Source of the DNA: a virus | Lineage: Duplodnaviria > Caudoviricetes | Reading direction: 5' to 3' (one strand) | Length of the DNA: 53,480 nucleotides | IMG/VR virus record: IMGVR_UViG_3300042347_000977 | Coordinates: 1 to 53,480 of that record | Shown: positions 29,206 through 53,312 of the stretch, one piece after another | How the letters are laid out: every line of letters starts with the position of its first letter | How positions within the stretch are numbered: position 1 is the stretch's first letter | The notes under the pieces: generated by a model | Seen by the model: the letters and a program-made list of their open reading frames with translations, nothing else | What the model was told of the DNA's origin: nothing | Database searches by the model: none | Made by a program: the position numbers and the translations under genes

Positions 29206-29260
29206 AAAAAAAGAGGCAGACTTTACCCGGCCTGCCAGCGGTTGTGGTGGTGTGGAAAAT

Positions 29261-29331
29261 TAGCAGGACCGGGAATCGAACCCGGAACGCAAGGTTATGG
29301 GCCTCGTGAGATACCGTTTCTCCATCCTGCG
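29261..29331 (-). tRNA. tRNA-Met(CAU), initiator-like, no encoded CCA
   Basis: CGCAGGA/TCCTGCT acceptor with C1:U72 mismatch, A11-U24, anticodon arm CGAGG-CCCATAA-CCTTG, T arm CCGGG-TTCGATT-CCCGG. Confidence 0.9.
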
Positions 29332-29338
29332 ATTTGAA

Positions 29339-29848
29339 TTAGCGGAGCTTTAGCGCAAATCGACCGAGCCGCCCAAGCAACCCGGGACGACCAGCCGCAG
29401 AGTTTATGGCGGATTGCCCAGCCATGCCGTAACCGGCCTTGACCTTATCCATAAAGCCCATGCGGCCAAAGTTGCCCAATGCCCCCGCCTTGGCGATTTT
29501 GTAGTTTGCTGCACGCTGAGCAATCGGAGTAGAGCCAACGCGATCCGCCGCAGTCGCTGCCATGGCAGATTTTTTTGCATACTCGTCTGCACCGACGCCC
29601 ATCACAGCCTTATGGCCGCGATAGGCTCCATAGCCAGCGCCACCGACAGCGGCTGCACCTGCACCGGCTTTGACCGCCGTGCCCATGCCCATGCCACCTT
29701 CGTCCTCGACCTCGACAAACTGCCCATTGGCGTCACGCACCATGGCAAATTCCTTGAGCTTTTCAGTGCGAGCCGCCAGCTCGCGAAGCGCAGGCTTGAG
29801 ATCCTTCACTCCGTGTTCTCCGTGTCCTCTGTGGTTAAAATTCTTCAT
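29339..29848 (-). CDS. Basic Gly/Ala-rich protein with LRELAARTEKLKEFA leader (putative head cargo)
   Basis: 169 aa directly after the capsid gene; RDANGQF motif; GAGAAAVGGAGYGAY hydrophobic segment. Confidence 0.75.
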   Translation of the reverse strand: MKNFNHRGHGEHGVKDLKPALRELAARTEKLKEFAMVRDANGQFVEVEDEGGMGMGTAVKAGAGAAAVGGAGYGAYRGHKAVMGVGADEYAKKSAMAATAADRVGSTPIAQRAANYKIAKAGALGNFGRMGFMDKVKAGYGMAGQSAINSAAGRPGLLGRLGRFALKLR

Positions 29849-31288: not shown

Positions 31289-32050
31289 TTAGCCCTGGTT
31301 GCGGATCCAATCTTGGTGCGCGTCAGGATTTTCTTTGTGGGCGAGCATCACGGCCTGGGCGTGTGTCTTGCCCTGGTTTTTGTGGTTCTGCACGCGAGCT
31401 TCGAACTCATGGAGTTCGCCGTTTTTGCCATTGATGGCAGCACCCTCGGCGCTGAAGGCCAGCGGGCGGACGCCAGTTTTAAGAGCGTTGCGGAGCGCGT
31501 CGTTTTCGGCGACGAGCTTATCGGCAAATTCCTTAAGCTCGGCGCGCTCGGCGGCGAGTTGGGTCATGTTGCCTTCGATAGTCGAAAAGTAGTGTTCGAT
31601 CTCGTTGTTCTCAGCGGCGGCATCTTCGCGTTCGAAGCGGGCCGAGAGTTCACGGACTTGTTTTTGCAGAGCGGAGAGAGCAGTGCCCTCGGAGCCACCT
31701 GTGGAGCTTTCGACTCCTGCACCAGCACCGGCGAGTTCGCCAGCGGGTTCGTTGCCTTGCTCGCCAGCTTCATCGGCTTCCAGAGCGGCGATGACTTCGG
31801 CTTGGTAGGCTTGGATGCCAGCGGCATCCTCTTCGCTGATCTCTCCAGCTTGGACGAGAGCGGCGATGTCCTGCTCGGTGAGATCCATGATCTCTTCGAG
31901 GGAGATTTCTTCATTGTTCTCCGCACCTTGTTGCAGGGCGGCGATTGTCTCTTGCTGGGCAGCGACCTGCTCAGTAAGCGTGTTCAGGGCCGCCATGACA
32001 TCTTCAAGAGAAGGGCCTGCCGCTGCTTGGGTGTTGTTGGTGTTTTCCAT
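31289..32050 (-). CDS. Nested in-frame scaffold protein (internal start MENTNN)
   Basis: Internal ATG at 32050 has its own GTTGAC 18 nt upstream, like other genes; analogous to lambda C/Nu3. Confidence 0.6.
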   Translation of the reverse strand: MENTNNTQAAAGPSLEDVMAALNTLTEQVAAQQETIAALQQGAENNEEISLEEIMDLTEQDIAALVQAGEISEEDAAGIQAYQAEVIAALEADEAGEQGNEPAGELAGAGAGVESSTGGSEGTALSALQKQVRELSARFEREDAAAENNEIEHYFSTIEGNMTQLAAERAELKEFADKLVAENDALRNALKTGVRPLAFSAEGAAINGKNGELHEFEARVQNHKNQGKTHAQAVMLAHKENPDAHQDWIRNQG

Positions 32051-32593
32051 ACGAGAGTTGTTTGGCGTGTCAACTGAGGCCAGTTGTTTTGTGTCACCTT
32101 CCGGCAGCTTGGCCTCGAAAAGCCCAGAGGGGTTTGCCGCAGGGTTTGCGACCAAATCGACTGAAATGAGTTCGGAGCAACGGGCTTTCTTCTGGCCGTT
32201 TTCCATCTCGTCCTCGCCCATGAATGCGGCCGAGAGGCCCACATTTGCTGGCATGCGCTCGGCCATTTCGATGGCCTGGGCAAAGCGGTCGTGGCTCTTG
32301 AGAAGGTGCCAATCCCCGAGGAGCTTCGCGTCCTCGATGCGGAAATTGTCCAGGTAGCCATTCACGGCATCCGCCCCTGTGCGGTGGTTCCATTTCACCG
32401 GCACCGTGCCGAGCTTTTCGGCACATTCCTTGATCTGGTTGAGCGTCTTCGCATCCACCTCCAGATCGTGCCCGCGCGCCTTCACGCCGCTGGTGATCAC
32501 CGCCACGCCGTGGATCACGCCATTGAGAGCGTCCACCTTCTGCGCGCAGTTATAGGGGGTGTAAAATTCTTTAAGATTTGCTGTCGTCGCCAT
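31289..32593 (-). CDS. Prohead maturation protease with C-terminal scaffold
   Basis: GV.VIT.G..ARGH, V..NH, VGLS..F, ISVDLV.NPAAN..GLF (clan SH prohead protease pattern), followed by an acidic coiled coil. Confidence 0.85.
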   Translation of the reverse strand: MATTANLKEFYTPYNCAQKVDALNGVIHGVAVITSGVKARGHDLEVDAKTLNQIKECAEKLGTVPVKWNHRTGADAVNGYLDNFRIEDAKLLGDWHLLKSHDRFAQAIEMAERMPANVGLSAAFMGEDEMENGQKKARCSELISVDLVANPAANPSGLFEAKLPEGDTKQLASVDTPNNSRMENTNNTQAAAGPSLEDVMAALNTLTEQVAAQQETIAALQQGAENNEEISLEEIMDLTEQDIAALVQAGEISEEDAAGIQAYQAEVIAALEADEAGEQGNEPAGELAGAGAGVESSTGGSEGTALSALQKQVRELSARFEREDAAAENNEIEHYFSTIEGNMTQLAAERAELKEFADKLVAENDALRNALKTGVRPLAFSAEGAAINGKNGELHEFEARVQNHKNQGKTHAQAVMLAHKENPDAHQDWIRNQG

Positions 32594-33367: not shown

Positions 33368-34366
33368 TTAAGAAATTTTCTGACTGCCCTTGAGCAGCAT
33401 CCCCGCGTAGCTCACACCATCGTTGATCGTGACATTGATCATCTGGAACGCGCCGGTCTTGCGAGAGATGAAGCGGATCAAGTAGCCATGCGTCCACTCG
33501 GTCGGGCGCGTGTTGGCATAAAGTGGCTGCCGCTTGCAGAGGCAGCCGGGATTCCATGCGGAGATCAGCCCCAGCCCAGGAATGTTCTTGGGCTTGAAAC
33601 TCGCGCGGTGCGTGTCGAAGTAGCAAATGTTGCCCCCCGCCTTCGCCATAGCCACCTCCGCCGCATCGCGGGCGTTGCTGATCTTGTGGACGAAATACAT
33701 TTTATCCATCTTGACCCATCCCGGCACATCGCAGTCTCCGTGCGTCTTGCCTTGGTGGTAGTATTTGATGCCCCGCTCCGCGAGCTTCAGCACATGCTCG
33801 GCGCAGAAGGTGCGGCGAAGCAGGTCGATATCCTTGTGGTGCGCGAGCCGCTGCGTGAGCGCCCATCTTTCGACCCTCCACTCATGGTTGCCCTCGATGT
33901 AATGAATATCCCCGCAGCCCGAGTGGTGCATCACGGCATCGAGCAGATCGTTCGACACCCGCACATCATCCTCGTAGCTATCCTCCGTCTCGGCCACATA
34001 GCCCAGCGTGTGGTGCTCGGCCAGAAAGCCCCCGCAGTCCAAAAAGTCGCCGCCTATCACGATGCGATCTGGCTGGAGGGTCTTCAAGTCGCCCAGAAAA
34101 GCAGAGAACGCCGCCGGGTCATGTTTGTTCCCATGCACATCCGAAAAAATCACTTCTATAATGTCGCCCGCTCCTGGCTTCGGCGAAGTCGGCTTCGCCT
34201 TCACAATCGGGCGAGTGCCCGTGCGCGCCTTCTCCAGCGCCCGCACCGTCTCCGCGTGAGCCTTGCGCTCCGCATCGAGATCCGCCAGCGCCTGGTCGAG
34301 CTTAGATTTATGATCCGCCGCCTGCGCCGCCTGCGCCACCGCGCCCCATTGGGTTGTTTTTTTCAT
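33368..34366 (-). CDS. Calcineurin-like metallophosphoesterase
   Basis: SDVH, GGDFLD, EGNHE, H, THR motifs; N-terminal coiled coil. Confidence 0.88.
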   Translation of the reverse strand: MKKTTQWGAVAQAAQAADHKSKLDQALADLDAERKAHAETVRALEKARTGTRPIVKAKPTSPKPGAGDIIEVIFSDVHGNKHDPAAFSAFLGDLKTLQPDRIVIGGDFLDCGGFLAEHHTLGYVAETEDSYEDDVRVSNDLLDAVMHHSGCGDIHYIEGNHEWRVERWALTQRLAHHKDIDLLRRTFCAEHVLKLAERGIKYYHQGKTHGDCDVPGWVKMDKMYFVHKISNARDAAEVAMAKAGGNICYFDTHRASFKPKNIPGLGLISAWNPGCLCKRQPLYANTRPTEWTHGYLIRFISRKTGAFQMINVTINDGVSYAGMLLKGSQKIS

Positions 34367-34369: not shown

Positions 34370-35128
34370 TTATTTTTCTTTGCGCTGTGTCAGCCAAGTT
34401 GCGCCGCCACCGCCAGCCACAGCCCCAGCCATCGCGCCGACGCGCATCGCCTGCACCTGGCGGCTCACCGCCTTGCCCGTGCCGATGCCACGCGCATACG
34501 ACTCGCAGTTGTTTGCTCCCGCTGGGCACACACTCTTCCGGTCCCAGCGCTTGTCGGCCTGCGAAGCCTCGTAGCGTTTGTTGAAAGCCTCCACCTCGGC
34601 ATCGTTCATCGTGCCAGCGCGCCCCTCCGCACGCTGCGGGATACCCCGCTCACGCAGCACCTTGCCATCGTTGTCGATATACACCTTCTTGCCGAATTCC
34701 GCCTGATCCACAATTTTGCGTCCACGCGATTTGCTCACCTCGGCGATCCGCCCACTGCCCACACCCACGCCATAGTGCCGCTGCGGCACGCCCAAGAACT
34801 CATCCGCCTTCAGCGCCGCACGCGAGAGCGCACCCTTCACGCCCGCCGCCTCGCGATTCTTCCGCAGCACGCCGCGCAAACTCCGCCCATTCGGCAAATG
34901 AATGATCTCCGCAGGCGTGGTGAGCCCTTGGTTGTTATAGACCACCTTGCCAAGAAGAGATTCCCCCTCCTGAACCAAGCGACCCTTCGGCAGCAAACGC
35001 GGCAGCGTGCGCATCCCCACCAAACCACCCGCCGCGACACCAGCCCCAATCAAAGCCGCACGGCCCACGCCGCTGCGCTTCTCCTCGGACTTCGCCGCCA
35101 GCTCCTTGAGTCGGGATTTAAGGTTCAT
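34370..35128 (-). CDS. LRAT-like (permuted NlpC/P60) domain protein with LKELAAK leader
   Basis: HYGVGVG.G.I and NNCESYA....TG...S.QV followed by a hydrophobic tail; start overlaps the upstream TGA. Confidence 0.75.
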   Translation of the reverse strand: MNLKSRLKELAAKSEEKRSGVGRAALIGAGVAAGGLVGMRTLPRLLPKGRLVQEGESLLGKVVYNNQGLTTPAEIIHLPNGRSLRGVLRKNREAAGVKGALSRAALKADEFLGVPQRHYGVGVGSGRIAEVSKSRGRKIVDQAEFGKKVYIDNDGKVLRERGIPQRAEGRAGTMNDAEVEAFNKRYEASQADKRWDRKSVCPAGANNCESYARGIGTGKAVSRQVQAMRVGAMAGAVAGGGGATWLTQRKEK

Positions 35129-36999
35129 GCCAGTAATCCCTTCACTGCACGCGACGGAAGATCCCCTTTCGGAGCAGGAATTACCTCCCAAGCACCACGC
35201 CGCGAACGATATTTTTTAGCAAGGTTGCCTGTCGCCTTTAAGATTTTGGAGCGATTGGCCGCGATAGCGATTGCACCTGCAATTCCAGCAAGACCAGGAG
35301 CAATTTTAGCGAGGGCCAGACCTGTATCGTCTCCAGCATTGGAAAGCAGCCCCTCCCTCTTCAGCGCTCGATCCTCCAATTTATTGATTTTTGGTTGCAT
35401 CGCCGCACGCCCCGCCAAAAGACCAGCCGCACCGAGGATTGCAGCCTTCTTATTGACTCCACGCTTTCCAAACAACACCCCGCCGCCCGCCAATCCAACA
35501 CCAGCCCCACCGAGAGCGGCGAGAGGATAAGAGCTAATATTGTCTTTGATATATTCAGCCCTGCGAATGTTGTTTACCGCATTTTTATCGGCAAGGCGGT
35601 CGTATTCACTGTTGGAAAACTCTTGCGATTTCAACCTCTCAGCACGATCTGGCACAGCCTGCTTCTTACCACCGACCAAGGCATTCACGCCAAAAACAGC
35701 GCCAGCGGGTATCCCAATAATTGCGGCCCGCTTCAAAATAGCCTTTCCTCGCACATTTTTAATACGAGAGCCGGATTTTATAGCGTTCAAAACACTTGCA
35801 CGCGGAAGGATTTTTTCACCGGCATAAGCCGCAACCGGCACGGCGGCGGCCGCTGCCAAAAACCCAGGAGCAGAATGCTTGAGCGCATCACGCTTGCGAT
35901 ACTCCACGCCCTTGTTTCCGTAATACTGCTGGGTCTCTATACCTTGGAGGGCATTCGGATACCCCCCCGTGATATAGCCAATATAACCACCTGTCCGCCA
36001 CTCGTCGGACTTCGCCGCCAGCTCCTTGAGACCTTGCAAATCCTCTTCAAAAATCCTGGAAGCCACCTTCTTGAAAGTCGGGAAGGTCGTGAGCTGCGTT
36101 TTGATCACCTTGCCAGCACGATTAAACCGCGCCGCCGCAACCCGCGCCGAGCGAGCCGCCTTGCGAGCCTCGGCAGAGGTCTTGAGCGCGTCATCCGTGA
36201 GCGTCTGCGCGCTCTTGGCCGCCTGCGCTCCGCGAAACCCTGCGTAGGCCACGCCTCCACCAGCACCCAAAGCGCCGATCCCGAGCGCCGCATTACGAAA
36301 ATCTCTGCCTGCCTGCCCCGGCTCCGCAGGCTGCGCCTGCACCGCATAGGGATCAAAGGGCGAAACACGAGCCAACTCGCGCAAGCGGAGTTTGGCGGAA
36401 AAGTCTTTCTCGCGCGTCGCAAGATACCCAGCCCCCGCGCCAGCACCCACCACGCCTGCGCCGACACCAATCGAAATGTTACGGCGGCGAACGCCTTCAT
36501 TGATGAGTTTTCTGGCTCGCCGCACATCATACTTAGCATAAGTGCCGCGCGCAATAGCCCTATGCCTCATCCCGCTTTCAATCTTATACTGAAGGTGAGG
36601 GTCACTGTAAGGGAACTTGTTCTGCTTGACGGCATCAGCGCGGTAAGCGTCTCTCAACGACCTGTTGTATTTCGCTGCATCCAACGCCTCGCGCCCAGCC
36701 TTGATCTGCGCCATTCCCGTGAGATCGGAAATTTTATTGAGAATCGAGAACTCCTTCACCCCTCCGTGCTCTCCGTGTCCTCCGTGGTTAAACCTCGAAA
36801 GCCCCCTCTGCTCCTGCGGCACGCTTTCCTCCACGCCACGGCGCAGGCCGATGGCTCGGCGGAGTTTCTCGGCGAGAGTCGCCTTACGCGCCTCGATGAT
36901 CTGCGGATTGTAAGCCGCAGAGGTGGTGTTGGCGTCCATGCCGCCGCCAGACTCGGGGGCAAACTGGCCGTTGTTGTTGCGTGGTCTTGAGTCGTTCAT
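35125..36999 (-). CDS. Modular polyprotein-like head-region protein (~624 aa)
   Basis: Junction motifs VKEFS, FSAKLRLRELA, LKELAAK and SQEFS separate modules with GxxxG hydrophobic segments. Confidence 0.75.
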   Translation of the reverse strand: MNDSRPRNNNGQFAPESGGGMDANTTSAAYNPQIIEARKATLAEKLRRAIGLRRGVEESVPQEQRGLSRFNHGGHGEHGGVKEFSILNKISDLTGMAQIKAGREALDAAKYNRSLRDAYRADAVKQNKFPYSDPHLQYKIESGMRHRAIARGTYAKYDVRRARKLINEGVRRRNISIGVGAGVVGAGAGAGYLATREKDFSAKLRLRELARVSPFDPYAVQAQPAEPGQAGRDFRNAALGIGALGAGGGVAYAGFRGAQAAKSAQTLTDDALKTSAEARKAARSARVAAARFNRAGKVIKTQLTTFPTFKKVASRIFEEDLQGLKELAAKSDEWRTGGYIGYITGGYPNALQGIETQQYYGNKGVEYRKRDALKHSAPGFLAAAAAVPVAAYAGEKILPRASVLNAIKSGSRIKNVRGKAILKRAAIIGIPAGAVFGVNALVGGKKQAVPDRAERLKSQEFSNSEYDRLADKNAVNNIRRAEYIKDNISSYPLAALGGAGVGLAGGGVLFGKRGVNKKAAILGAAGLLAGRAAMQPKINKLEDRALKREGLLSNAGDDTGLALAKIAPGLAGIAGAIAIAANRSKILKATGNLAKKYRSRRGAWEVIPAPKGDLPSRAVKGLLA

Positions 37000-39900
37000 G
37001 GTGTTTTCCAATTTTTTAAAATCTCGGCGGCTTCTTTTGCTGAGGGCGGGCGGTCTACAAACTTGCTCGGATCGATCGGCTTTTTCAAAAACCGCGAAGG
37101 GATGAGCGACTTGCCGGAGACGAGGCGTTGGCCGACGAGCATGGCCCCTGCGCCGCCGAGGGCGCTGGCTACGAGGCCTGCCTTCCAGAGCTTGCGCTCG
37201 TTTTCCGTCTTCTCATACCACTCCTTCGGGCGGCGTTCGCGGCGGCGGCTGCCAGGGGCAAAGACCCGTGCCGAGCGGCCACGCGGATCGCGGACATCCC
37301 ACCCTTCGTATTCCGCGATCGCATCGAGTTCGCGGAGCCTCTTCAGCTTTGCGGAGAATGCTTTTTTCGCGGTGACTTTGGTGAGGCCTTTCAAAATGTT
37401 CCCGCCGATCTCCGAGAGGCCATCCTTCGTAGCGCGCAGGCTTGCCTGGGTATTTGTGTAGGCTTTGCCGATCTTGGTATCCGGGTTGTTATTGGCATAG
37501 CGCACGGTGGCGAGCCCGCCCAATCCAGCCGCTGTCATGCCGATCTCGGTGGCCTTATTTTGGAACCAGCTTTTCTCCCACTCACGCTTCTTGATGCGCC
37601 CGCTGGCATCGCGCTCGCGTTCCTTACCTTGAAGGACTGCCGCCGCATCTCTCGTGAGCCGACCGCCGCGCTGCACAGTGACTCGCTTATTTTTCGCCTC
37701 GCGAGCTATCGAGTTCCAGAGCTGACCCGAACTCGGATCCCAGTTCACGCGAATCGCCTCGCCAGTCTCCTTATCCCGCACGACGCGGCCCGCGCTGTCG
37801 CGCTTGGCGACATACATCGGACGGTCGTTCGCCCAGCCCCAAGCAGGGTGTGCAAATTGCGAGTCTTCGTTGGACCGCACTCCACCGCCCTGCCGGGCAT
37901 CCCAGCGAGGTTGGTCGGAGCGGCCAAATTCCTTTGGCTCATCGAGCTTTTTCCAGCCCTTGTTCGACGGGCCATAGTAGCGAGATGCCGCCACCGAGGC
38001 TCCGACACCGGCCCCTGTGAGACCAATCGCCGTGCCATTCCGCTTCGCCCATCCGCCCACCGCCTTGGCGGCACGCTTGGCTGTATCCGCCATAGCGGAA
38101 AACTCGCGAAGTTTGATTTTTGTAGAAAACTTTTTCATATCCTTTCTCAGATTGCGAATCGAGTCCACCTGCTGCCCTTCATCCGCTCCCATGCCGCCGC
38201 CATAAAGCGCACCGCCCACGGCTCCGATCCCTGCGGCCCCCGCCAGAGGGGCCTTACGCAACCACATGGCAGGCCGTGAAAACGGCTCCGACTTCTTGGA
38301 TGCCGCCACAAGCGCCCGCGCTCCACCCCTGGTCTTGCGAAGCAGCAATGCCCCGCCAAGTCCTGCGCCTGCACCCACCAGCGTGCCGCCGATAGCCGCC
38401 CGCTTCATAAAGGGAGCGGACTCCTCCTTGCGCGGATCGCCCACGATCTTGCTGCCGAGCAACGCCCCGCCGCCGACGATACCCGCCGAGGCCAAACCGA
38501 GCTTGCCCGCCGTCTTCGCCGCGCCACGGAATGTCGCCCCACGCTTGAGCAACGCCAGAGAGCCAAGCGCCGCCCCACTGCCAAAGCCCGAGAGCCCAGC
38601 ACCCACATAGGGGTTCATGCCGCGCTTCTCACGATCCCGCTTCTCGAAAAATTTGATAGTGCGGAGGCGGGCGGAAAATCCCTTGAATCCATCTTTCCCA
38701 ATATAGTGATCCTTCCCATCTTGATCCCTATAAATTGAACCGCCGCCTTTTTTGCCATCCCAGCGACCCGCCCAAGACCATCCTTGAGCGCGAAGATGCC
38801 GAGGAATCCGCGCGTTCTCTTTCCTTAAATTCTCTTGCCAGAGCACCTCCCTTTCGGCCTTCCGCTCTGGGGAATTCCAATACTCGGGCGAGTTTTTGTC
38901 GTAAAAACCCGCAGGAGGCCCGAAACGCTTTCCCTCGAAAAATCTGACGCGTATCTTCGCCGCAAGCTGTTTCTCCTTGCGCGTAGCCAAATATCCAGCG
39001 CCAGCACCAGCAGCGGTTAATCCTGCCCCAGATATCACAGCGTCTCGCTTGAAACGATCAGCCGCCTGCTTGCGGTTGTCCTTTGCTATTTTTATGTATC
39101 GTTTCAGCCCAAATGTTCCGAACTTGGGTTGATAGTTTTTGCCAAACATTTCCCGACCATAAGCCGCCGCATCTTGACCAAAAAGTTCCCGAGCCATATC
39201 TGGGTCGTTTCCGTATACGCTTTCAACAGAACGCCGTGACTGGACCCCCGCCCACGCGCTATCCTTTGAGCGCATATCTTTCGCCCACTGAGTGTTAAGT
39301 TTTGCCGTCCGCCGCGCGAAGTGCCCAAAAGGATCATAATCAGTAATCAAATCAATACCCCTTTCTATTACCGGCACGATTTTTGACTTCAACACCCCAA
39401 ACTCTTTCAATCCGCGCAGCTTCGCACTCAAACTCTTCCGCGCTGGCCCCTGCCCACGGCCCTTGCCGTAACGGGATTGCCCAGGCGATTTGCCATCGCG
39501 CCGAGTCCGCACCCAAATGCCACGCGCCATCTGGCTTCGCTCCGTCTCATTCGGCGTGCGCACAGCGACCAACTCATCACCGCCACGCTTCTTTTTCTTA
39601 CGAGCCTCCTCCGCGCTCCGCGCGGCAATGCCTGTATTCCGCCCCTTGAAGTAGTAGAGCCGGTAGTCAAAGTTCTTCACGCCACGCAGGCGAGAGGAAA
39701 GATACTGGAAGCGAAGGGGCGTGAGATCGATCACATCGAGACTACTCGTAACGCCGCCACGCTCCGCCTTGGCGATGAAGTGATGGCCGTCCACCACCTT
39801 GCCATTCAGGATCAGAACGAATTTCTCGCCTTTCTTCAACTGATCGAAAACCATTTTTGCCGCCTTCGCTTTTTCGAGCTTGGAAACATTTGCGCGGGCC

Positions 39901-42074
39901 AGCTTGAGATTCGGAAGGTCCGCCATCATAGCCAGCTCCGAGGCAACCATGCCGTAGTGGATCACCTTATCGCCCGGCTTCGCATTGATAAAGCGAGCGA
40001 TGTCGGCCTGCACATTTTTAGGAAGACCCTCGATCGCCATATCTTCGACATACGCGGCAAACTCCTTCACCCCTCCTCTGTGCCCTCTGTGCCCTCTGTG
40101 GTTAAATTTCTTGTGGTTAAACTTCGCCGCAAACGCCTTCAGCCGCTTACCCGCCAGCCAGGCCGCTGCGCCGAGTCCACCCACGGCGGGGAGCAACTCC
40201 GCGCGCTTGCTGCCGCGATCACGCTCGCCGTAGATGTCGCGGTCGTTATTGGTGAGGGCACGGATGCCGATCACCCCGAGTCCGCCAGCGCCCGCCCCGA
40301 TGAGTGCGCGCTTGCTCGCGCCGATGCGGCCACGAGCCATAAGCCCCGCCAGCGCACCCGCGCCACCGGCGCGCAGGATATTCGCATCGCGGCGATCCAA
40401 GTCCTCATCGCGGAGCTTCTTCACGAAGCGATCCCTCGCCACGCGCCCCGTGAGCGGGATGCCCGCCTCGTCGGTTTGAAATTGATTGAAATAGCGCACG
40501 CGCTGCAAGAGCGCTGAGAGGTTCTTGCCATTCTTTTTGTCGCGCTTCGCCTTGACCTTGGCAGCGAGCCTTTCGGCATAAGAAAGTGGAGCCGCATCTT
40601 TTTTACCTTTCTTGGATTTTGCGGCAGGCTTGGCAGCAGGCTTGTTGGAGCCTGACTTTGCGGCAGACTTCTTGGCGCGCACTTGGGGATTCTCCTTCAG
40701 CTTTGCCTCCCAATCGGCTTCTTCCGCCGAGGCATCCGGTTCATTGATGTCGTCTGCCTCATCCAGATCGTCGAGATCGTCAGCCTCATCGGCATCCTCT
40801 TTTTTGGCCTTGGACTTTTTCTTACCTTTAGGCTTCGGATTGTTTTCCTTCCCTGCCGCGCGAAGTTTATCGCTGAGTCCTTCTGGAAAATCGGATTTCG
40901 GTTTCAGCGAAGCGCGGGCCTCATCGATCACATCGGCAGCGACCTTGCCATTGAATCCCCCGGAGGCGTGAGTGTCTTCCAATTTTTTGCGCAGGGCAGC
41001 ACGCTGCTCGGGCGTTCCTGTGAGCGGAACCTTGCCGACGCCTTTTTTCTCCCAAAATTCCTCATTCGTCGCGCTGGCGACTTTTGGCGCAGGCGCGCCA
41101 TCATCCACACGCCGCACGGACGACTTGATAGCCTCGACGCGGGACGCGGGGGTGGCAGGAGTCTCTGTTTTTGCAACTACGGGAGCCTTTGTTTTCGGAA
41201 CGACTGGCGCTGCGGGCGTGGACGGCACGGGGGCCGTCCCTCCAGACTGAGCGGCGGCAAATTTTGCGACCTTCGCTTGCCGCTTCGCCAGCTTTTGTTG
41301 CCTCGGCGTGAGCTTGCGGGGGGCCTTGGCAGCTTCCGCAGCCGCTGCGATTTCCTCTACTTCGGCAGCGGCATCGGCATTGGATAATGCCCCCTGCTTG
41401 TTGAGATTATCCACTGCCTTGACTTGCTGCGCCGCCGCCCCTTTCACTTTGGGAAGCGTTGGCGGTGGCGTCTGTGGCGGCGGCTGTGGGGAAGGTGTCT
41501 GTGGCGTCTGAGCCTGCGGTGTCTGTGGAGCAGGCTGAACGGACTTCGGGCGGCCACGAGGAGCAGGCGCGACATCCGCGACGTCGGCAGCGGCCTTACT
41601 GGCACGCAGCTTCGAGAGTTCCTCGGCTAGATCCTCGGCTCGCCGCACGGCCCCGCTGTTGCCGACCTTATACAACCCACGACCCAGCAAAGCTCCACCA
41701 CCAAGCAAACCCGCGCCCACGATGCCCGCTTTGATCAACCCGTTGCGTCGCTCTTTCTGCTTCTCCTGAGCAAAATCCTTATCGTAAGGATTTCCGTAAA
41801 AGCCGCCTGGAGGTTGATAATAGCGAAATTCTTTAAGCCTCATACCCAGCCGCCCTCGCGTCAACAGCTTGAATTGCCCATTATCCTCGATGTCGGGCAG
41901 TTCTGGCCAGCGATCCGCCTGCCCGGGATTTGCCTCGCGCAGATACCGACGCAGGGCTTGGCGCGTGCGGTGTTGACCCACCACATTCACGCCAGTCGAT
42001 GCAGGCGGCCTCAGATGGGGCTTGTTTATCAGAATCCTTGCCTTCTCGGCTGCTTTGCGAAGTAATTCACTCAT
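36996..42074 (-). CDS. Giant modular polyprotein-like head-region protein (1692 aa) with a ParB-like module
   Basis: About ten junction motifs, Lys/Arg-rich modules, Gly-zipper segments, VVDGHH. Confidence 0.8.
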   Translation of the reverse strand: MSELLRKAAEKARILINKPHLRPPASTGVNVVGQHRTRQALRRYLREANPGQADRWPELPDIEDNGQFKLLTRGRLGMRLKEFRYYQPPGGFYGNPYDKDFAQEKQKERRNGLIKAGIVGAGLLGGGALLGRGLYKVGNSGAVRRAEDLAEELSKLRASKAAADVADVAPAPRGRPKSVQPAPQTPQAQTPQTPSPQPPPQTPPPTLPKVKGAAAQQVKAVDNLNKQGALSNADAAAEVEEIAAAAEAAKAPRKLTPRQQKLAKRQAKVAKFAAAQSGGTAPVPSTPAAPVVPKTKAPVVAKTETPATPASRVEAIKSSVRRVDDGAPAPKVASATNEEFWEKKGVGKVPLTGTPEQRAALRKKLEDTHASGGFNGKVAADVIDEARASLKPKSDFPEGLSDKLRAAGKENNPKPKGKKKSKAKKEDADEADDLDDLDEADDINEPDASAEEADWEAKLKENPQVRAKKSAAKSGSNKPAAKPAAKSKKGKKDAAPLSYAERLAAKVKAKRDKKNGKNLSALLQRVRYFNQFQTDEAGIPLTGRVARDRFVKKLRDEDLDRRDANILRAGGAGALAGLMARGRIGASKRALIGAGAGGLGVIGIRALTNNDRDIYGERDRGSKRAELLPAVGGLGAAAWLAGKRLKAFAAKFNHKKFNHRGHRGHRGGVKEFAAYVEDMAIEGLPKNVQADIARFINAKPGDKVIHYGMVASELAMMADLPNLKLARANVSKLEKAKAAKMVFDQLKKGEKFVLILNGKVVDGHHFIAKAERGGVTSSLDVIDLTPLRFQYLSSRLRGVKNFDYRLYYFKGRNTGIAARSAEEARKKKKRGGDELVAVRTPNETERSQMARGIWVRTRRDGKSPGQSRYGKGRGQGPARKSLSAKLRGLKEFGVLKSKIVPVIERGIDLITDYDPFGHFARRTAKLNTQWAKDMRSKDSAWAGVQSRRSVESVYGNDPDMARELFGQDAAAYGREMFGKNYQPKFGTFGLKRYIKIAKDNRKQAADRFKRDAVISGAGLTAAGAGAGYLATRKEKQLAAKIRVRFFEGKRFGPPAGFYDKNSPEYWNSPERKAEREVLWQENLRKENARIPRHLRAQGWSWAGRWDGKKGGGSIYRDQDGKDHYIGKDGFKGFSARLRTIKFFEKRDREKRGMNPYVGAGLSGFGSGAALGSLALLKRGATFRGAAKTAGKLGLASAGIVGGGALLGSKIVGDPRKEESAPFMKRAAIGGTLVGAGAGLGGALLLRKTRGGARALVAASKKSEPFSRPAMWLRKAPLAGAAGIGAVGGALYGGGMGADEGQQVDSIRNLRKDMKKFSTKIKLREFSAMADTAKRAAKAVGGWAKRNGTAIGLTGAGVGASVAASRYYGPSNKGWKKLDEPKEFGRSDQPRWDARQGGGVRSNEDSQFAHPAWGWANDRPMYVAKRDSAGRVVRDKETGEAIRVNWDPSSGQLWNSIAREAKNKRVTVQRGGRLTRDAAAVLQGKERERDASGRIKKREWEKSWFQNKATEIGMTAAGLGGLATVRYANNNPDTKIGKAYTNTQASLRATKDGLSEIGGNILKGLTKVTAKKAFSAKLKRLRELDAIAEYEGWDVRDPRGRSARVFAPGSRRRERRPKEWYEKTENERKLWKAGLVASALGGAGAMLVGQRLVSGKSLIPSRFLKKPIDPSKFVDRPPSAKEAAEILKNWKTP

Positions 42075-42334
42075 CGTTTTTTCCCCTTTCCAAAAATAAA
42101 ATCATTCCCCTCCCGACCAAATCCCTTGTGTGCCTCCAGATAGTTCTTCTGCACCCGCCGCCGCTCCGGCGTCTGCCGCCAGAAATACTCGCTCCCCCGC
42201 TCCATATCCCGCTTGAGAGCTTCCATCCAAATCTGCTCCCGCTCCTCCTGCGACAGATACCGCCGCACCCGGCCCGCCTCCTTGAACGACAGGCAACCCG
42301 TGCCCTTTAACGAATTTTGACCTGCTCGACTCAT
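42071..42334 (-). CDS. Small basic hypothetical protein
   Basis: 87 aa with ATGA overlaps at both ends. Confidence 0.6.
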   Translation of the reverse strand: MSRAGQNSLKGTGCLSFKEAGRVRRYLSQEEREQIWMEALKRDMERGSEYFWRQTPERRRVQKNYLEAHKGFGREGNDFIFGKGKKR

Positions 42335-42828
42335 AATCCCCTCCCATAAGCCAACTCCCGCAAGCGCACCTTCGCGGAGAAGATGTTTTTCTTGGTGAAT
42401 CGCGCTGTTTCGCCGCGAGCGGCTCTCGCATCGTCGTAGGCATCGGCCAGCGTATCATGCACATTGTGCGAATGCGGCACGATCGCGCCTTTCGCATAGT
42501 CCGTTTTATCCAGAAAATCCGCCTTGTCCTTGCCAAGCACTTTTTGGCGCAACAAAAAGGTAGTCCTCCACTTCCCTGGACTCTCGATGTCCGGCGATAC
42601 AAGAGTGATGCCGGTCTTCTTGATCTTCGGATAAGAAACATCCCAACGCGTCTCGGCAGGATGAATGACAGGCTTGCCCACAAGCACCCCGCCCTTGGGA
42701 TTCTCGGCAACAAACTTCGCAAGCCGTTTCTTAAAGTCCTTGCCAGCAGCCTCCCACTTCTCGACATCAAAAAAATCCTCATCCGCCAACTTCAATCGCG
42801 GAATCCGCGCTAACTCCCGCAACCTCAT
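42331..42828 (-). CDS. Hypothetical protein bracketed by LRELA motifs
   Basis: Begins MRLRELAR and ends FSAKVRLRELAY; coupled to the portal stop. Confidence 0.7.
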   Translation of the reverse strand: MRLRELARIPRLKLADEDFFDVEKWEAAGKDFKKRLAKFVAENPKGGVLVGKPVIHPAETRWDVSYPKIKKTGITLVSPDIESPGKWRTTFLLRQKVLGKDKADFLDKTDYAKGAIVPHSHNVHDTLADAYDDARAARGETARFTKKNIFSAKVRLRELAYGRGL

Positions 42829-44534
42829 TTCTCCCCCTCCGTGCTCTCCGTGTTCTCCGTGGTTAATTTCTTTGGCCCATCGGGGATCATCTTCTCAGCC
42901 GCATTCCGCTCCACGCCATACAGGTTCATCAGATTGATAATCGCGCTTTCGCGATCCAATATCCCTTCGCCCACATTTTTCAGCAACTCCAAGAGCGGCT
43001 TCACATCCAAGCCCTGCGGAACGAGTCCAGGTGGCGGCGGCTGTGGCGGCTCGGCCATGGCGGCGAGGGCTTGAGTCGGCCCAGGCAGGCGTTGATTGAT
43101 GAGTTCGATCGGCACACCTGTCTCGGTGGCGACCCGTTGCAGGTAAGCCACTTCGCTCGCGCTACGGCGCACCACTTCCTCAAAAGATTGTCCTGTCTCG
43201 GCGATGAGGTCAGTAGCCGTGACGAGTCCGGCAGAGAGAAGCTGGAGATTTGCCGTAGTGTCGTGGCCGTAGTCGCCTGTGAGCGAGCGGCCAAAGCCCC
43301 ATCGGCCACTGCGCCATTTCGGGTGCGCTGGCAAGTCGCCGAGAGAAATACCAAGGCCGATCACGCGATCCCGCAGCGGGTCGAGGGCTTTCTCGCTAAG
43401 AAGTTTCTGGTAGCGGCGGATCGAGCGCATGGCTTGGGCGATTTCGATGCGACCCGTGTGACCCGAGAACGCCGTCATGTCATAAAGGAATCCGTAGGGC
43501 ATATTCAGCCCGCTCGCGATCTCGCGCACCATCACCTGCACCAGCGCCATAAAGGCTCCGCTCGGGCGGTTCGTGCCAGGAGCGAACTGGATGTCCTCGC
43601 CTTGCGAGAGCCGTTGGATTTTCCCTGCCTCCATCGCCATCGTGCCGGGCGAGTCGGGGCGGTTATCCTTCGTGCCATTCCACGCCGAGATGCCGCCATC
43701 GCGCCGAGTGGGGTCTGAAACCTTGATGAATCCCGCATGGCCCACCTGCCACTTCGCGGCGAGCTTCTCAAAGTGATACACCTCATACAAATCCCGCGCA
43801 GGAGCGATCACGGTCGAGAGCGCCGTGACGCCTCGGTATTGATCCACCCGCATCGGGTCGAAGATGTGAATGAACTGGTCGGCAGGGATTTCCTTCTCAA
43901 AGGAATACAAGGCCGTGCGCCGCTCGCGCTTGAAGATGCGGTAGGATACAGGTCGGCCCAAGTCGTCCACGATAACGCCGCCGATGTCGTTGTTGTTGCC
44001 GGGGTTCATCGGGTTGTTCGGATCCCCGATGCGGTCGGCCTCTATACTCTGAATGCGAAGCTGTTGCTTGCCGCCCTCCTCGATCTGCACCAAGTGCCAG
44101 CCGTGATCGCCGTCGACCAGCAAGCTCCACATCGCCATCCACACCAACGCGCCAAGCCGGTGACGGCCAGTAATATCCGCCTGCTCGCACCAGGCATGGA
44201 AATAGTCCTGATACATCGAATCGATCTCCTCATCCCCCGTTTGCGACACATACTGGACGGTATCCGCCGTGTATTGGACGATGCGCGAAATGATGCCGCG
44301 CAGGATCGAAAAATTCCGCACCACATCCCGCGCATCCCACAAGAGCACAAGACGATCCCGCTGCATCCGCCATGTCTCCGAGGAAGAGTTCTTCTGCCTC
44401 CCGCCGCTGCCCCCGCGATTCGTGCCAGGCTGAGCGGCGTCATACCCGAAAGCCTTCAACCGCTCCCGCGCCATCGCCCGACTCACCCCCGCCTCGGGGT
44501 CAAAAAAAGATACCGCTCGATCAAGAAAGTTCAT
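42825..44534 (-). CDS. Portal protein, lambda family
   Basis: YDAA, AR..VRN, LRIQ.IEADRI, GV..D..GRPV.Y, IH.F...R..QYRGV, IA.GL.MPY. Confidence 0.95.
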   Translation of the reverse strand: MNFLDRAVSFFDPEAGVSRAMARERLKAFGYDAAQPGTNRGGSGGRQKNSSSETWRMQRDRLVLLWDARDVVRNFSILRGIISRIVQYTADTVQYVSQTGDEEIDSMYQDYFHAWCEQADITGRHRLGALVWMAMWSLLVDGDHGWHLVQIEEGGKQQLRIQSIEADRIGDPNNPMNPGNNNDIGGVIVDDLGRPVSYRIFKRERRTALYSFEKEIPADQFIHIFDPMRVDQYRGVTALSTVIAPARDLYEVYHFEKLAAKWQVGHAGFIKVSDPTRRDGGISAWNGTKDNRPDSPGTMAMEAGKIQRLSQGEDIQFAPGTNRPSGAFMALVQVMVREIASGLNMPYGFLYDMTAFSGHTGRIEIAQAMRSIRRYQKLLSEKALDPLRDRVIGLGISLGDLPAHPKWRSGRWGFGRSLTGDYGHDTTANLQLLSAGLVTATDLIAETGQSFEEVVRRSASEVAYLQRVATETGVPIELINQRLPGPTQALAAMAEPPQPPPPGLVPQGLDVKPLLELLKNVGEGILDRESAIINLMNLYGVERNAAEKMIPDGPKKLTTENTESTEGEK

Positions 44535-44538: not shown

Positions 44539-45363
44539 TCATTGCGGAGCAGTCAACGACTGGCGCGTGTATCCTTGACCAGCCAGCTTGTAGGGCCGTA
44601 TTTTTAACAAATTGTCTCCGTGAACTTGCGTAATCTCCTGCTCAAAAGGGAAAGCATTATTAACGATTGATGCGCCTGATTTTTTTTGTTGATTGCGAAT
44701 TAAATCATTCAGCGATGTAGCATACACGCCAAGCACAGGCTCCTGCCCCGTAAGATATTCACGACTCACGGCTGGATTAACTGAAGTGCTTATAGCATCT
44801 CCGGTATTTTGGGAAATATGCGACCTCATCGGCCCCTCATTATCGATTCCCGCCCGCTTTAATTTGACTCTTGATTTTGCAGATTTACTATACTTTTGCC
44901 TGATTTTCTCAGGGAACCCCTCGCTCGCCAACCCCTTGCTATATTCGCCGCTTAATACAAAAGCATCATGCCTTGGAGTCCTTAAAGAATCCACTGTATC
45001 AGCCCCCCGATAATGCAAGATAGATTTTTTCCCGTCGATATCTACCAACTTCGGAGTAACCGGATTCCATACCTTGGCCCAAGCGTGAGCGCCTGTCGTA
45101 TGATTAAAAACCGGCATCGCAGCGGTCTGCGGACGCGAAACGCCAAATACACCGCGCACAGCCTGCCTGTCCCCGCCCTTTTCCAATTTACGCCGCAAAG
45201 ATTTAAGAATCGGGTCAGCAACTTTTCGCGGCACAGGGCTGATATTAAGAACCTTCCCACTAACAGACTGCACTCGCGCCAACTCCACCAACCGCCCGCT
45301 CACCTGCGCCAACTCGCGCAACCTCTCTCTGTGTCCTCTGCGTCCTCTGTGGTTAATCATCAC
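44539..45363 (-). CDS. ADP-ribosyltransferase (R-S-E class) with RELA leader
   Basis: HYRG, ISTS and FEQEI in the order and spacing of cholera/LT/pertussis-type ARTs. Confidence 0.75.
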   Translation of the reverse strand: MMINHRGRRGHRERLRELAQVSGRLVELARVQSVSGKVLNISPVPRKVADPILKSLRRKLEKGGDRQAVRGVFGVSRPQTAAMPVFNHTTGAHAWAKVWNPVTPKLVDIDGKKSILHYRGADTVDSLRTPRHDAFVLSGEYSKGLASEGFPEKIRQKYSKSAKSRVKLKRAGIDNEGPMRSHISQNTGDAISTSVNPAVSREYLTGQEPVLGVYATSLNDLIRNQQKKSGASIVNNAFPFEQEITQVHGDNLLKIRPYKLAGQGYTRQSLTAPQ

Positions 45364-45899
45364 ATCGACCTCCTCGCACTAAGCATGGCCTTGAATGTCG
45401 GGAACAGCCGTTCCACGATGCTTCTGCCGGGTCTTCTTCGGTTTTGCGTGGCGTAAGCGCCCACCTCGGCGATGTATCGCTTGACGGGGTTCATCATGCT
45501 TCTCACATAGGATTGCCCTTGGGATGCCGCCTTGGCCCGCTGGATCGAGTGGACGATCTCGTGTCTGAGCACGCTGCGCTTCACATCCGCCGCGCGGCTG
45601 AGGCCGTTTGCTTCAGCAATCGCCTGCCACCCTCCGGGCGAGGTCTTCTTGAGGCCGACAGAGATGGCTCCGTTTTTTCTGACTTTGGCTATTGCCGCCT
45701 CTTGGCCAGGAGCAAAACTTTCCCCTTGGTTGGTGAGCCGAAATGCCTCGGGAGCCTCGTATTCGCCACTCCCTCTCGGCAGGCTATGGTCTCCATAAAT
45801 GTATGGGCGCGAGTATTTGAGCGGATGTCCAAGTAGTCCAAACTCTCGGCTCACCTGCGCCAACTCGCGCAACCTCTCTCTGTTGCGGCTAATCCCCAT
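45360..45899 (-). CDS. HExxH zinc-metallopeptidase-like protein with RELA leader
   Basis: VLRHEIVHSIQ plus downstream E..AY. Confidence 0.65.
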   Translation of the reverse strand: MGISRNRERLRELAQVSREFGLLGHPLKYSRPYIYGDHSLPRGSGEYEAPEAFRLTNQGESFAPGQEAAIAKVRKNGAISVGLKKTSPGGWQAIAEANGLSRAADVKRSVLRHEIVHSIQRAKAASQGQSYVRSMMNPVKRYIAEVGAYATQNRRRPGRSIVERLFPTFKAMLSARRSM

Positions 45900-45917
45900 G
45901 CCCACAACGCATGGCGG

Positions 45918-46229
45918 TCAACCGAGCTTCAATGCCATCGACCTCAACCACAGCGGCGAGGAGGCTGTGACCTTCAGATTCCACTGCTCCAAGGCCGGAG
46001 TGTAGGGGATTTCCTTTGGCTTCGGCACGGGCTTGGGCTTTTGAACTTTCGGATTCGGCTTTCTTCCTTCATCCTTCTTCCTTTTGACTTTCGGAAGCGG
46101 CGCGGCAGTCGGAGCTTCCAGCGTATAGGAGAGGTGAGCTTTCGCACACTTGCGCCTGCGCCACACACCGCCTTCGCGCGGACGGCTTTCGACCACGCGC
46201 GTATCGCCACCGCACTTCGGGCAATTCAT
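45918..46229 (-). CDS. NrdR-N-like zinc-ribbon protein
   Basis: MNCPKCGG.TRVVESR......RRRKC...H...T.E. Confidence 0.7.
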   Translation of the reverse strand: MNCPKCGGDTRVVESRPREGGVWRRRKCAKAHLSYTLEAPTAAPLPKVKRKKDEGRKPNPKVQKPKPVPKPKEIPYTPALEQWNLKVTASSPLWLRSMALKLG

Positions 46230-46414
46230 TTCGCCTTCCGACTCCGCCAAAAGGGAATCAATTTCGCATACAGATCGAGCTGATCCATTCCCCTCTCGCA
46301 GCAAGGGCAAATCGGCTCGCGTTGCCTCTGCTCGGGCGCATTACTCCGACGCCCCTTCATGCCGCAAGAGATGCAAGTGTATCGCCGCGAGGGCAGTGAA
46401 GCGTCATCGCTCAT
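46226..46414 (-). CDS. Small zinc-finger protein
   Basis: CISCG...CPCC; ATGA overlaps. Confidence 0.55.
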   Translation of the reverse strand: MSDDASLPSRRYTCISCGMKGRRSNAPEQRQREPICPCCERGMDQLDLYAKLIPFWRSRKAK

Positions 46415-49633: not shown

Positions 49634-49765
49634 AATCTTCCTTCTCTGTGTCCTCTATGGTTAAAAAAAATGAAGGGGGTCGCTTTTATGCGGTTACGAC
49701 CCTGGGGCTATGCTAACCAGCGCGAAACCCGCGCGCCGCCGCAATCCCATTTCCTCCAAAAATGT

Positions 49766-53310: not shown

Positions 53311-53312
53311 GT

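Follow-up and report, generated by a model that had tools for sequence, protein, structure and literature searches.

A string of exchangeable modules joined by a recurrent junction peptide beside the portal gene of a tailed phage: a candidate packaged cargo polyprotein

The stretch of DNA considered here comprises positions 1 to 53,480 of the IMG/VR record IMGVR_UViG_3300042347_000977, a tailed phage (Duplodnaviria; Caudoviricetes); this whole stretch of 53,480 nucleotides (nt) is called the window below, and the record is judged 56% complete. Nearly all of its long open reading frames (ORFs) lie on the minus strand. Among them, between the portal gene and the genes for the head protease and capsid protein, is an ORF of 1692 amino acids (aa) at positions 36996-42074 (minus strand), whose start and stop overlap the neighboring genes in the ATGA fashion. 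A preliminary description, made from the sequence of the window, had presented this frame as open over 1692 aa, as it indeed is, and had regarded its product as a polyprotein of about ten modules separated by a junction motif. The ORF has 63 homologues of 1003 to 2622 aa, with relatives found on contigs of up to about 97 kb, and more than half of the sampled words of the window are present in two lake-water metagenome runs, one of which is possibly the source sample. A tblastn search of the 1692-aa ORF against 50,697 cultured-phage records gave no match, and Pfam and PHROGs offer no family for its product or for those of the 628-, 273-, and 165-aa genes beside it. Since the portal is less than 30% and the capsid protein about 22% identical to those of any cultured phage, there is no studied relative from which proteomics could be borrowed.

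Modules and the peptide at their junctions

Cutting the protein at the motifs yields ten pieces, M1 to M10, all on the minus strand; a slash below marks the border at which they are numbered. M1 (residues 1-82; 41829-42074) ends in a degenerate junction, MRLKE/F. M2 (residues 83-528; 40491-41828), which ends in LSALLQRVRY/F, has a Gly-rich hydrophobic stretch followed by an Ala/Pro/Lys-rich tract; the composition described earlier as histone H1-like is confirmed, with its acidic patch at residues 413-482. M3 (residues 529-671; 40062-40490; ending in LKAF..FNHRGHRGHRGGVKE/F) and M8 (residues 1143-1324; 38103-38648; ending in FSTKIKLRE/F) are Gly/Ala-rich backbone modules, whose 32-36% of Gly plus Ala and many GxxxG-like runs (16 in M8) agree with their earlier designation as Gly-zipper units. 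M4 (residues 672-801; 39672-40061) is a compact cassette with the sequence DGHHF, ending in ..DLTPLRFQY and then LSSRLRGVKN/F. The small, compact M5 (residues 802-891; 39402-39671), followed by LSAKLRGLKE/F, contains 28% Arg plus Lys and is the Arg-rich peptide that had been pointed out. Two further cassettes, M6 (residues 892-1045; 38940-39401; ending in LAAKIRVRF/F) and M7 (residues 1046-1142; 38649-38939; ending in FSARLRTIKF/F), precede M8. M9 (residues 1325-1582; 37329-38102) has an inner border, PKEFG, and ends in FSAKLKRLRE/L, and the C-terminal M10 (residues 1583-1692; 36999-37328; ..GWDVRDPRG..) is the most widely conserved of all.

An AlphaFold2 (AF2) model of residues 655-900, based on an alignment with 14 relatives of M4 and 17 of M5, has a mean predicted local distance difference test score (pLDDT) of 85. 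M4 reaches 93-98 and M5 91-96, the His/Gly stretch at 655-670 stays below 50, and the junctions lie between these levels: the first falls from 77 to 63, with a helix over residues 785-798, and the second is at about 68-70. The best PDB matches of M4 are the N-terminal domains of ParB (5k5d, 7bm8, and 6sdk), Atu1540 (2hwj), sulfiredoxins (6ky4 and 1xw3), and Noc (7nfu), all of them weak (E of 0.1-3, probability up to 0.8). The compact fold of M4 is thus as had been anticipated, and "ParB-like" is a reasonable, although unproven, label for it.

All 11 peptide strings originally quoted for the junctions are present within a few bases of their reported places, at 41826-41843, 40488-40520, 40122-40142, 40053-40070, 39669-39701, 39399-39431, 38937-38966, 38646-38678, 38100-38129, 37923-37937, and 37326-37358. 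Their strict consensus is an 11-residue peptide, (K/R)x[LF]SA[KR]LR(G)[LV][KR]EF, which is matched at seven sites (residues 519, 792, 882, 1037, 1133, 1316, and 1573); this pattern, composed after the data were seen, has a mean of 0.0015 matches in 2000 residue shuffles, with one or more matches in 3 of the 2000. A looser pattern applied to the whole window gives nine matches in the three minus-strand frames versus one in the three plus-strand frames. Three sites are degenerate: MRLKEF at residues 78-83, LKAF..VKEF at 645-674, and PKEFG at 1380-1384. Break-points of homology cluster at residues 640-679 and 1370-1389, with few at 70-89. The claim that ten junctions share the motif stands for most of them as a peptide motif and fails for the one at 40051-40146, which is a DNA-level element described below.

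Across the 64 family proteins we found 96 instances of the motif in 41 proteins, 83 of them unique when flanks are included. In the first half, these 83 sites have K/R at position -2, followed by L46/F32, S62, A63, K47/R31, L73, and R64; in the second half, an optional residue, mostly G, is present in 67 of the 83, followed by L38/V37, K47/R36, E51/F14/N12/Y5, F69/L14, and D38/E15/G14. Identity between the copies in the window is 0.27-0.28 at the third codon position versus 0.57-0.72 at positions 1 and 2, and identical residues share the same codon in 15 of 50 and 14 of 33 cases. Because the codons differ between copies, the conserved object is the peptide rather than the DNA, and the notion that the motif is a DNA repeat was dropped on the same codon divergence. 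We also discarded the possibility that the K-E pair (AAG GAG) conceals a Shine-Dalgarno sequence for internal starts, as its codons vary (AAA GAG, CGC GAG, and CGC GAA) and a start codon at a constant spacing downstream is missing. Within the window, the motif is restricted to the genes from 45905 to 28105, in the neighborhood of the capsid, portal, and protease genes; among the genes for tail and replication, there are only isolated four-residue matches that lack the FSAK-type half.

The exceptional junction at 40051-40146 (..KKFNHRGHRGHRGGVKEF..) is the in-frame reading of a DNA element, with the 21-nt core TTAACCACRGAGRRCRCRGAG followed by one or two further CACRGAG units. This element, 21-49 nt in length, has eight copies in the window, all on the coding (minus) strand, versus none in 100 shuffles; the cores lie at 27722-27742, 29818-29838, 36771-36791, 40085-40105, 42846-42866, 45336-45356, 49644-49664, and 51530-51550. 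Six copies are at or directly before gene starts, and one of them overlaps the last codons of the portal gene in another frame. The remaining two are inside ORFs, at 40057-40105 and, in the 628-aa ORF, at 36743-36791, and each is followed by GTG AAG GAG TT; the copy at 40057-40105 (minus strand), consisting of TTAACCACRGAGRRCRCRGAG and the following bases, is read as FNHRGHRGHRGG and then continues as GTG AAG GAG TTT. The element is kept at corresponding places in the related loci L002, L003, and L004 and is also conserved in L006, and at least 12 of the 64 family proteins read ..FNHGGHGEHGGVKEF.. after M3. It has no Rfam match and looks like a phage-specific promoter or translation-start signal; hence, the in-frame copy at 40057-40105 might act as an internal promoter or start that gives a shorter product from M4.

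Exchange of modules and lineage-specific versions of the junction

When each of the ten pieces was compared with the 63 homologues, 211 of the 338 inner end-points of 185 BLAST high-scoring segment pairs fell within 12 residues of one of the 11 motif positions versus 54.7 expected from the 16% of the length that this zone covers; as the homologues are related, the count is descriptive and not a probability. A backbone of M1-M2-M3 ... M5 ... M8-M9-M10 recurs, while M4, M6, and M7 are found in few of the homologues and other sequence takes their place. The position of M4 is itself variable: M3 follows it in P0038 and precedes it in P0039 and P0049, and in P0056-P0061 it is found near residues 110-240. 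M8 precedes M3 in P0062, and M5 precedes M4 in P0187, the reverse of the order in the window. Identity to P0002 is mosaic, at 96% in M5, 59% in M6, and 98% in M7, with jumps at the borders. The homologues are therefore not collinear, and in BLAST end-points, alignments, and the AF2 model alike, domain borders coincide with the motifs and do not cross them.

Modules also occur on their own or at protein ends. A search among shorter proteins recovered 37, of which 20 complete-looking proteins of 72-97 aa, some on contigs of 11-38 kb, consist of M5 alone; the motif is absent from all 20. Their first residue lies 3-22 residues (median 4) ahead of the signature xYYF, where the polyprotein reads F/DYR-LYYF, 3 residues after the Phe, and they end 2-15 residues after G.GP, where the polyprotein continues as ..ARKS-LSAKLRGLKEF. 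These relatives of M5 (P0193-P0221) form a very basic family (..LYYFxGRNT..KKKRGG..WVRTRRDGKSP..YGKGRGQGP..) to which Pfam assigns no family. M4 constitutes the C-terminal end of P0211, a portal-like protein that stops at ..DLTPARFQS, and also that of the likewise portal-like fragment P0216; in the window, where the module ends as ..DLTPLRFQY-LSSRLRGVKNF, the motif begins exactly where these two stop. P0211 has a portal domain on record, and our own Pfam scan scored it at 27.2 bits, below the cut-off of 32.9. M4 takes the N-terminal place in P0038, where the start Met aligns with the final Phe of the motif. Because the stand-alone and terminal forms stop or start at the motif, it behaves as an 11-residue spacer between the last and first residues of adjacent domains.

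Products of neighboring genes are similarly found embedded elsewhere. Residues 84-203 of the 628-aa ORF, stretching from VKEF to FSAKLRLREL, lie embedded behind M3 in P0018 (74% identity), P0016, P0010, P0031, and P0007; residues 61-273 of the 273-aa ORF are embedded in the polyprotein P0055; and residues 47-265 of the 274-aa product in P0025, P0026, P0028, P0030, and P0055. P0059 contains the 181-aa product, and in L005 and L006 this product is fused to a preceding LSAKLRLREF. The neighboring genes belong to the same pool of modules as the 1692-aa ORF. Homologues further hold InPase (PF18823), SNF2 helicase (PF00176/PF00271), and HExxH modules. With pieces standing alone, taking a terminal position, or residing in the polyproteins of other phages, the ORF very probably encodes a string of independent, exchangeable modules and not one folded protein. 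This part of the original polyprotein claim is upheld; the other part, cleavage into separate proteins, is weighed further below.

A search with M8-M10 against 1.84 billion representatives returned 334 proteins at E of ≤1e-3, 235 of them at ≤1e-10, with M10 as the commonest shared part. Directly before M10, every lineage has a stretch of 11-13 residues that ends in F (or L) and is followed by D, with a differing make-up: FSAKLKRLREL-D in the window, F.TPASRLLQF-D in another large group, and ..LKQF-D, ..PHFF-D, ..IQF-D, and others elsewhere. Where the KR version stands before M10 (38 proteins), the rest of the sequences holds 51 KR-type sites and one TPA-type site in total, and the 25 proteins with the F.TPA..LIEF version have 45 TPA-type and no KR-type sites, the shuffled counts being at most 0.65 per set; because the lineages are related, this split does not amount to a probability. 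Example proteins hold 4-5 sites each, and a search for related loci gave 49 with the alignment A4 and none with P0281 alone. Other versions are repeated in the same manner, with LSAREELxxIIEF occurring four times in P0189 and six to seven M/LS[AS][KR]..PIQF-like sites in P0062, and the distant relatives L008 and L009 have weaker forms (FSSIEF, LSSRIKDF, and LSARLKNSVQMF). Such a pattern, uniform within a protein and different between lineages, is as expected of a signal that is read by one co-evolving partner or shared enzyme.

Neighboring genes and candidate proteases

In the direction of transcription, the 1692-aa ORF is preceded by genes for products of 181 and 274 aa, a lambda-family portal protein, and products of 165 and 87 aa, and it is followed by those for products of 628 and 273 aa, a metallophosphoesterase, products of 162, 434, and 134 aa, and the major capsid protein; the genes located in this section are all on the minus strand. 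The portal gene (42825-44534) matches PF05136 with an E of 4.9e-49, and the 318-aa major capsid protein (29923-30879), which is without the junction motif, matches phrog_1005 with an E of 1.4e-33. With a lambda-type portal and a small HK97-type capsid gene, the phage is not T4-like. No terminase large subunit was recognized among the ORFs scanned near the portal gene, and in a record about 56% complete this gene may lie outside.

The second half of the motif opens several of these neighbors, as MRLREL.., MNLKSRLKEL.., MATTANLKEF.., ..RERLRELA.. (twice), and ..LKLRELA... The 165-aa product (42331-42828) begins with MRLREL and has the motif at its C-terminal end (FSAKVRLRELAYGRGL). The second modular gene, of 628 aa (35125-37011), contains VKEF, FSAKLRLREL, and LQGLKEL, with its VKEF coming after the second in-frame DNA element at 36743-36791. 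The 273-aa ORF (34370-35191) has the likely start MNLKSRLKEL, and the 274-aa gene (44539-45363) has a leader, ..HRERLREL, after a copy of the DNA element. The two genes after the capsid gene (169 and 366 aa; 28105-29848) have leaders with LRELAAR and LKEF. Finally, the 181-aa gene (45360-45905), with the leader ..RERLRELAQVSREF, encodes an HExxH sequence, HEIVHS, which makes it a candidate zincin-like peptidase.

The 434-aa gene (31289-32593) encodes the most plausible processing enzyme. Its product gave no Pfam or PDB sequence match. The AF2 model, with 42 relatives aligned, has a beta-rich domain at residues 17-150, mostly at a pLDDT of 77-92 (about 60 at 71-80), beyond which acidic disordered linkers and long helices follow. 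The top Foldseek match of the model in the PDB is T4 gp21 (5jbl; E of 4.8e-3, probability 1.0, template modeling score 0.50 on the target), followed by herpesvirus assemblins, with E-values that are modest (4.8e-3 and above), and the Atlas leads are Mu-like_Pro and Peptidase_S77/S80, with scores of 0.92-0.93. H42, H70, H101, S121, and D146 are invariant in 42 sequences of the family; we take ..KWNH.. and ..GLSAAF.. to be the usual contexts of the catalytic His and Ser in this protease family. On the strength of the model, the protein is predicted to be a prohead protease of the gp21/assemblin fold (residues ~17-150) fused to a coiled-coil scaffold.

This protein has motif-like stretches of its own. 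Residues 1-10, MATTANLKE9-F, are disordered in the model, and at least 90% of the 42 sequences retain F10; by eye, the leaders of 45 locus homologues have a Phe shortly before the conserved domain (e.g., ..TIFF/D, ..QLIEF/E, ..PLYTF/E, and ..SVFSF/A). A further stretch, LSALQKQVRELSARF, at residues 306-320, forms the beginning of the long scaffold helix, behind a disordered acidic linker. The version-specific first half of the motif was considered as a mark of the scaffold's own site and was rejected, as four TPA-version loci have ..VLQYF/EAR, ..VVQHF/EAR, ..VRHL/SAK, and ..ALQYL/HEK there, without TPA. It is possible that this first half serves something else, such as loading or a second enzyme.

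A second candidate is the zincin-like protein. The 181-aa protein has no Pfam family even at an E of 5 and no PDB sequence match, with SprT-like and Tox-MPTase4 as weak Atlas leads (0.90-0.92). Two kinds of HExxH module, HE[IA]VHS and HE[AH]GH, occur inside 13 of the 64 family proteins and 2 of the 37 shorter ones; in the 1692-aa protein itself, HExxH is absent. Eight TPA-version loci, with 2-5 junctions each, have no homologue of the 181-aa module, and on their coding strand within 10 kb, HExxH appears in three short or overlapping frames and nowhere else; a prohead protease is seen in five of the eight. As the loci are partial, this is suggestive evidence against a zincin as the general junction enzyme.

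Several further features of the window are recorded here in their own right. A calcineurin-like metallophosphoesterase (PF00149, phrog_221; 33368-34366), without the junction motif, lies amid the head genes, with the cargo genes on one side and the protease gene on the other, and a 130-aa protein with an NrdR-like zinc ribbon (PF22811, E of 5.5e-9; 45918-46310) is encoded directly upstream of the cargo genes. A tRNA-Met (CAT) at 29260-29332, the sole match in an Rfam scan of the window, lies between two head-region genes. In the ORF at 28105-29205, a 46-nt stretch is present twice (28599-28644 and 29031-29076), 432 nt apart and 98% identical; it encodes LRELAARSGRIVEFGD twice, an internal duplication of a module opening with the second half of the motif. 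Toward the tail side, the ORF at 7121-8578 (485 aa) has about ten tandem 18-nt repeats (8256-8503), which encode a six-residue peptide repeat, and the ORF at 678-4334 (1218 aa) has six copies of a 144-nt (48-aa) repeat (2864-3898), 67-100% identical; the latter probably encodes a fiber or adhesin with repeated domains. A Pfam scan of eight tail-side ORFs found an Ig-like domain and nothing else. At the very end of the record (53267-53476) are four to five tandem 42-nt units (..CCTTCGCCATTTGATATATGGCGAGAGGGGAAGAGG..), 99-100% identical and each with an inverted repeat, which may be an origin, iterons, or the genome end.

Proposed fate of the protein and comparison with known systems

Taking these observations together, we propose that the 1692-aa ORF encodes a polyvalent cargo polyprotein that is packaged in the head and cut at its junctions by the prohead protease. 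We give this reading, in which we infer the packaging, the cleavage, the enzyme, and the scissile bond, about an even chance. Cutting into separate proteins at the motif would be the most economical explanation of where the motif occurs, a view that draws on this distribution and on the prohead protease encoded by the phage. Some ten modules, independently folding or of low complexity (membrane-type Gly-zipper, ParB/sulfiredoxin-like, and small basic ones), would be made as one chain and co-assembled into the procapsid beside the portal. The phage's own prohead serine protease, fused to the scaffold, would then cut at the junction peptide, most likely at its nearly invariant Phe, either directly after it or between it and the preceding residue; the mapping of the natural N-termini of the modules favors the former. 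The separate proteins thus released would leave the capsid with the DNA. The same short signal would also head the stand-alone cargo genes around the portal gene and the protease itself, in the manner of the T4 capsid-targeting sequence. As the junction peptide would turn any module into a plug-in cassette, the proposal accounts for the observation that module transfer, between genes as between phages, takes place precisely at these borders. Somewhat more doubtful than this, and in our estimate falling a little short of even, is the broader idea that the tailed double-stranded DNA (dsDNA) phages of this lake clade rely on a genuine polyprotein strategy for the cargo that they inject, with the 11-residue peptide as a universal adapter that combines loading signal and protease site, each lineage having a version matched to its own protease.

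Several observations weigh against this proposal. The first half of the motif (FSAK.. or F.TPA..) is missing from the protease-scaffold's own sites, so that only h-x-x-F and an acidic or small residue are common to junctions, leaders, and scaffold, a pattern short enough to arise frequently by chance. The residue before the Phe is Glu in 51 of the 83 unique sites, with Phe in 14, Asn in 12, Tyr in 5, and Gln in 1; because Glu is replaced in 32 of the 83, a strict T4-type Glu specificity does not fit. The promoter-like element at one junction offers another route to a shorter product, and the contrast between KR and TPA versions is weakened by the kinship of the lineages counted. A complex prediction for residues 1-165 of the protease with a 40-residue junction piece scored 0.01 against a mark of 0.32, which is evidence neither way. 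AF2 also renders both junctions as moderate-confidence helices, which would equally suit a docking helix. Indeed, the strongest of the competing explanations, which we nevertheless regard as unlikely, is that the modules stay in one uncut chain and that the junction peptide is a repeated docking signal to the scaffold, portal, or capsid interior; for example as a short peptide or an amphipathic helix, it would load the chain and the stand-alone cargo into the procapsid and may keep the chain extended for passage through the tail. The two helices at pLDDT 63-77 and the similar stretch at the start of the scaffold's coiled coil are in its favor, as are the precedents of the N4 virion RNA polymerase and some plasmid polyvalent proteins, described as delivered uncut in the main text of PMC5512222, and of the 10-residue T4 capsid-targeting sequence, which according to PMC9026906 can suffice for loading. 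However, ten loading signals would be superfluous in a chain that stays whole, the TPA version, with its mid Thr-Pro and no net positive charge, shows that neither a helix nor a basic surface is general, and the start of a stand-alone module maps right after the Phe, as a processing site would.

The question of which enzyme cuts leads to a less probable alternative, in which a zincin-like metallopeptidase, either the 181-aa HEIVHS protein or an embedded HExxH module, cleaves the junctions in the capsid or after ejection. Many relatives embed such a module and the window has a separate one, in line with the processing role that Iyer et al. proposed for MPTase domains (PMC5512222), and the absence of the version-specific first half from the prohead protease's own sites would also fit. 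We consider it improbable, since the polyprotein of the window is without HExxH, the 181-aa protein lacks a Pfam match even at an E of 5, and the eight TPA-version loci keep their junctions without a homologue of this module. Very little room is left for a role at the DNA level, with the motif supplying homology boxes for cassette recombination and the peptide having no function: modules are exchanged exactly at the motif and one junction is truly a DNA-level element, yet the third-position identity is about random, the codons differ at 35 of 50 and 19 of 33 identical residues, every stretch is too short for homologous recombination, and the peptide is kept across lineages. Least probable of all, to the point that we would hardly entertain it, is a single folded protein of structural function, for instance a tape measure or a fiber with an internal repeat, for which the length, the Gly-rich hydrophobic stretches, and the regular short repeats might speak. 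The gene lies between the portal and protease/capsid genes rather than in the tail module, the modules are unrelated, gained or lost singly, and stand alone elsewhere, and a separate 1167-aa ORF (20350-23853) occupies, by position, the place of the tape measure behind a tail-tube-like gene with an Ig domain. A tape measure gene would, moreover, be expected between the chaperone and distal tail genes, whereas this ORF directly follows the portal region.

Polyvalent phage proteins have been defined by their domain content, and their division into working units has so far been a proposal founded on embedded metallopeptidases. Here the module borders are written in the sequence, so that whether such proteins are cut, which enzyme acts, and at which bond become testable. 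The motif also provides an annotation rule, since hundreds of unannotated phage ORFs of 1000-2700 aa become searchable units when split there, 334 representatives having matched the backbone. If the peptide should prove sufficient for loading and release, it would be a compact, transplantable tag for packing foreign proteins into phage heads. The capsid-targeting sequence of T4 has already served as a tag for loading foreign proteins. If the polyprotein strategy holds, any protein placed between two adapters might be loaded into the capsid, released by cleavage, and injected into the host.

Among known systems, the closest parallel for the signal is T4, whose gp21 cuts after L/I-X-E, including its own LIE-9, and whose internal proteins are loaded through a leader of 10 residues, itself cleaved off by gp21 (main text of PMC9026906). 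In both cases, there is a leader ending in [LIV]-x-E on the cargo and on the protease (LKE-9 here, LIE-9 in gp21), the protease has the gp21/assemblin fold, and the cargo genes are variable between relatives. By pattern alone, the likeness extends to the h-x-x-F shared by the junctions and the cargo leaders and found again in the protease itself, at residue 10 and where it borders on the scaffold. The differences are that the signal here has 11 residues and is repeated in tandem within one ORF and that conservation is highest at the Phe following the Glu position. In the giant phages SPN3US and phiKZ, head proteins are described as cut at several sites of one motif (PMC10052503, PMC9026906), which resembles the multiple cutting of a head-internal protein by a gp21-type protease that we propose; in those accounts, propeptides are discarded and one mature piece remains, whereas here each piece looks functional and is exchanged as a cassette. 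The capsid protein and scaffold of phage 80alpha use a Prp/L27-type signal, KLKFNLQFF'A and KLKLNLQHF'A (PMC9405229), and the junctions (e.g., AKIRVRFF-E and AKLRGLKEF-G) are alike in pattern, as a basic, Leu-rich leader that ends in Phe and occurs on a scaffold. Unlike that system, none of the five records, the window and four related, incomplete ones (each 44-77% complete), has a Prp domain (PF04327). Eukaryotic RNA viruses likewise make many products from one ORF, through a short protease site that keeps one form throughout a virus and varies from lineage to lineage. Here, in contrast, the virus is a dsDNA tailed phage, the putatively cleaved products are accessory cargo, and replication or capsid proteins are not among them.

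By its design, the family belongs to the polyvalent proteins of phages and conjugative elements, of which InPase, SNF2, ParB-like, and MPTase modules are the hallmarks and for which processing by the MPTase has been proposed (Iyer et al. 2017, PMC5512222). According to the main text of that study, these too are very large multidomain proteins encoded beside virion genes, with domains shuffled among relatives and 2-15 distinct domains per polypeptide, against about ten modules with separate histories here, two of which fold as compact domains; their predicted fate is likewise packaging, delivery with the DNA, and processing into units. In repertoire, the window protein is without a Pfam domain and its M4 is ParB/sulfiredoxin-like by fold alone, with the InPase, SNF2, and HExxH modules residing in homologues; in context, the gene lies in the head region, and M4 is fused to the portal-like P0211. 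It differs in having no MPTase, no match to the Pfam families given in PMC5512222, and much Gly-zipper or low-complexity sequence in place of enzymatic domains. It further differs in the regular junction peptide, the word "linker" being absent from the main text of PMC5512222; more broadly, a literature search of abstracts and text passages, with supplements outside its scope, found no junction motif described in phage polyproteins or polyvalent proteins. What this family adds to the polyvalent proteins is thus a regular peptide between the modules, present in lineage-specific versions and missing from the stand-alone forms of the same modules.

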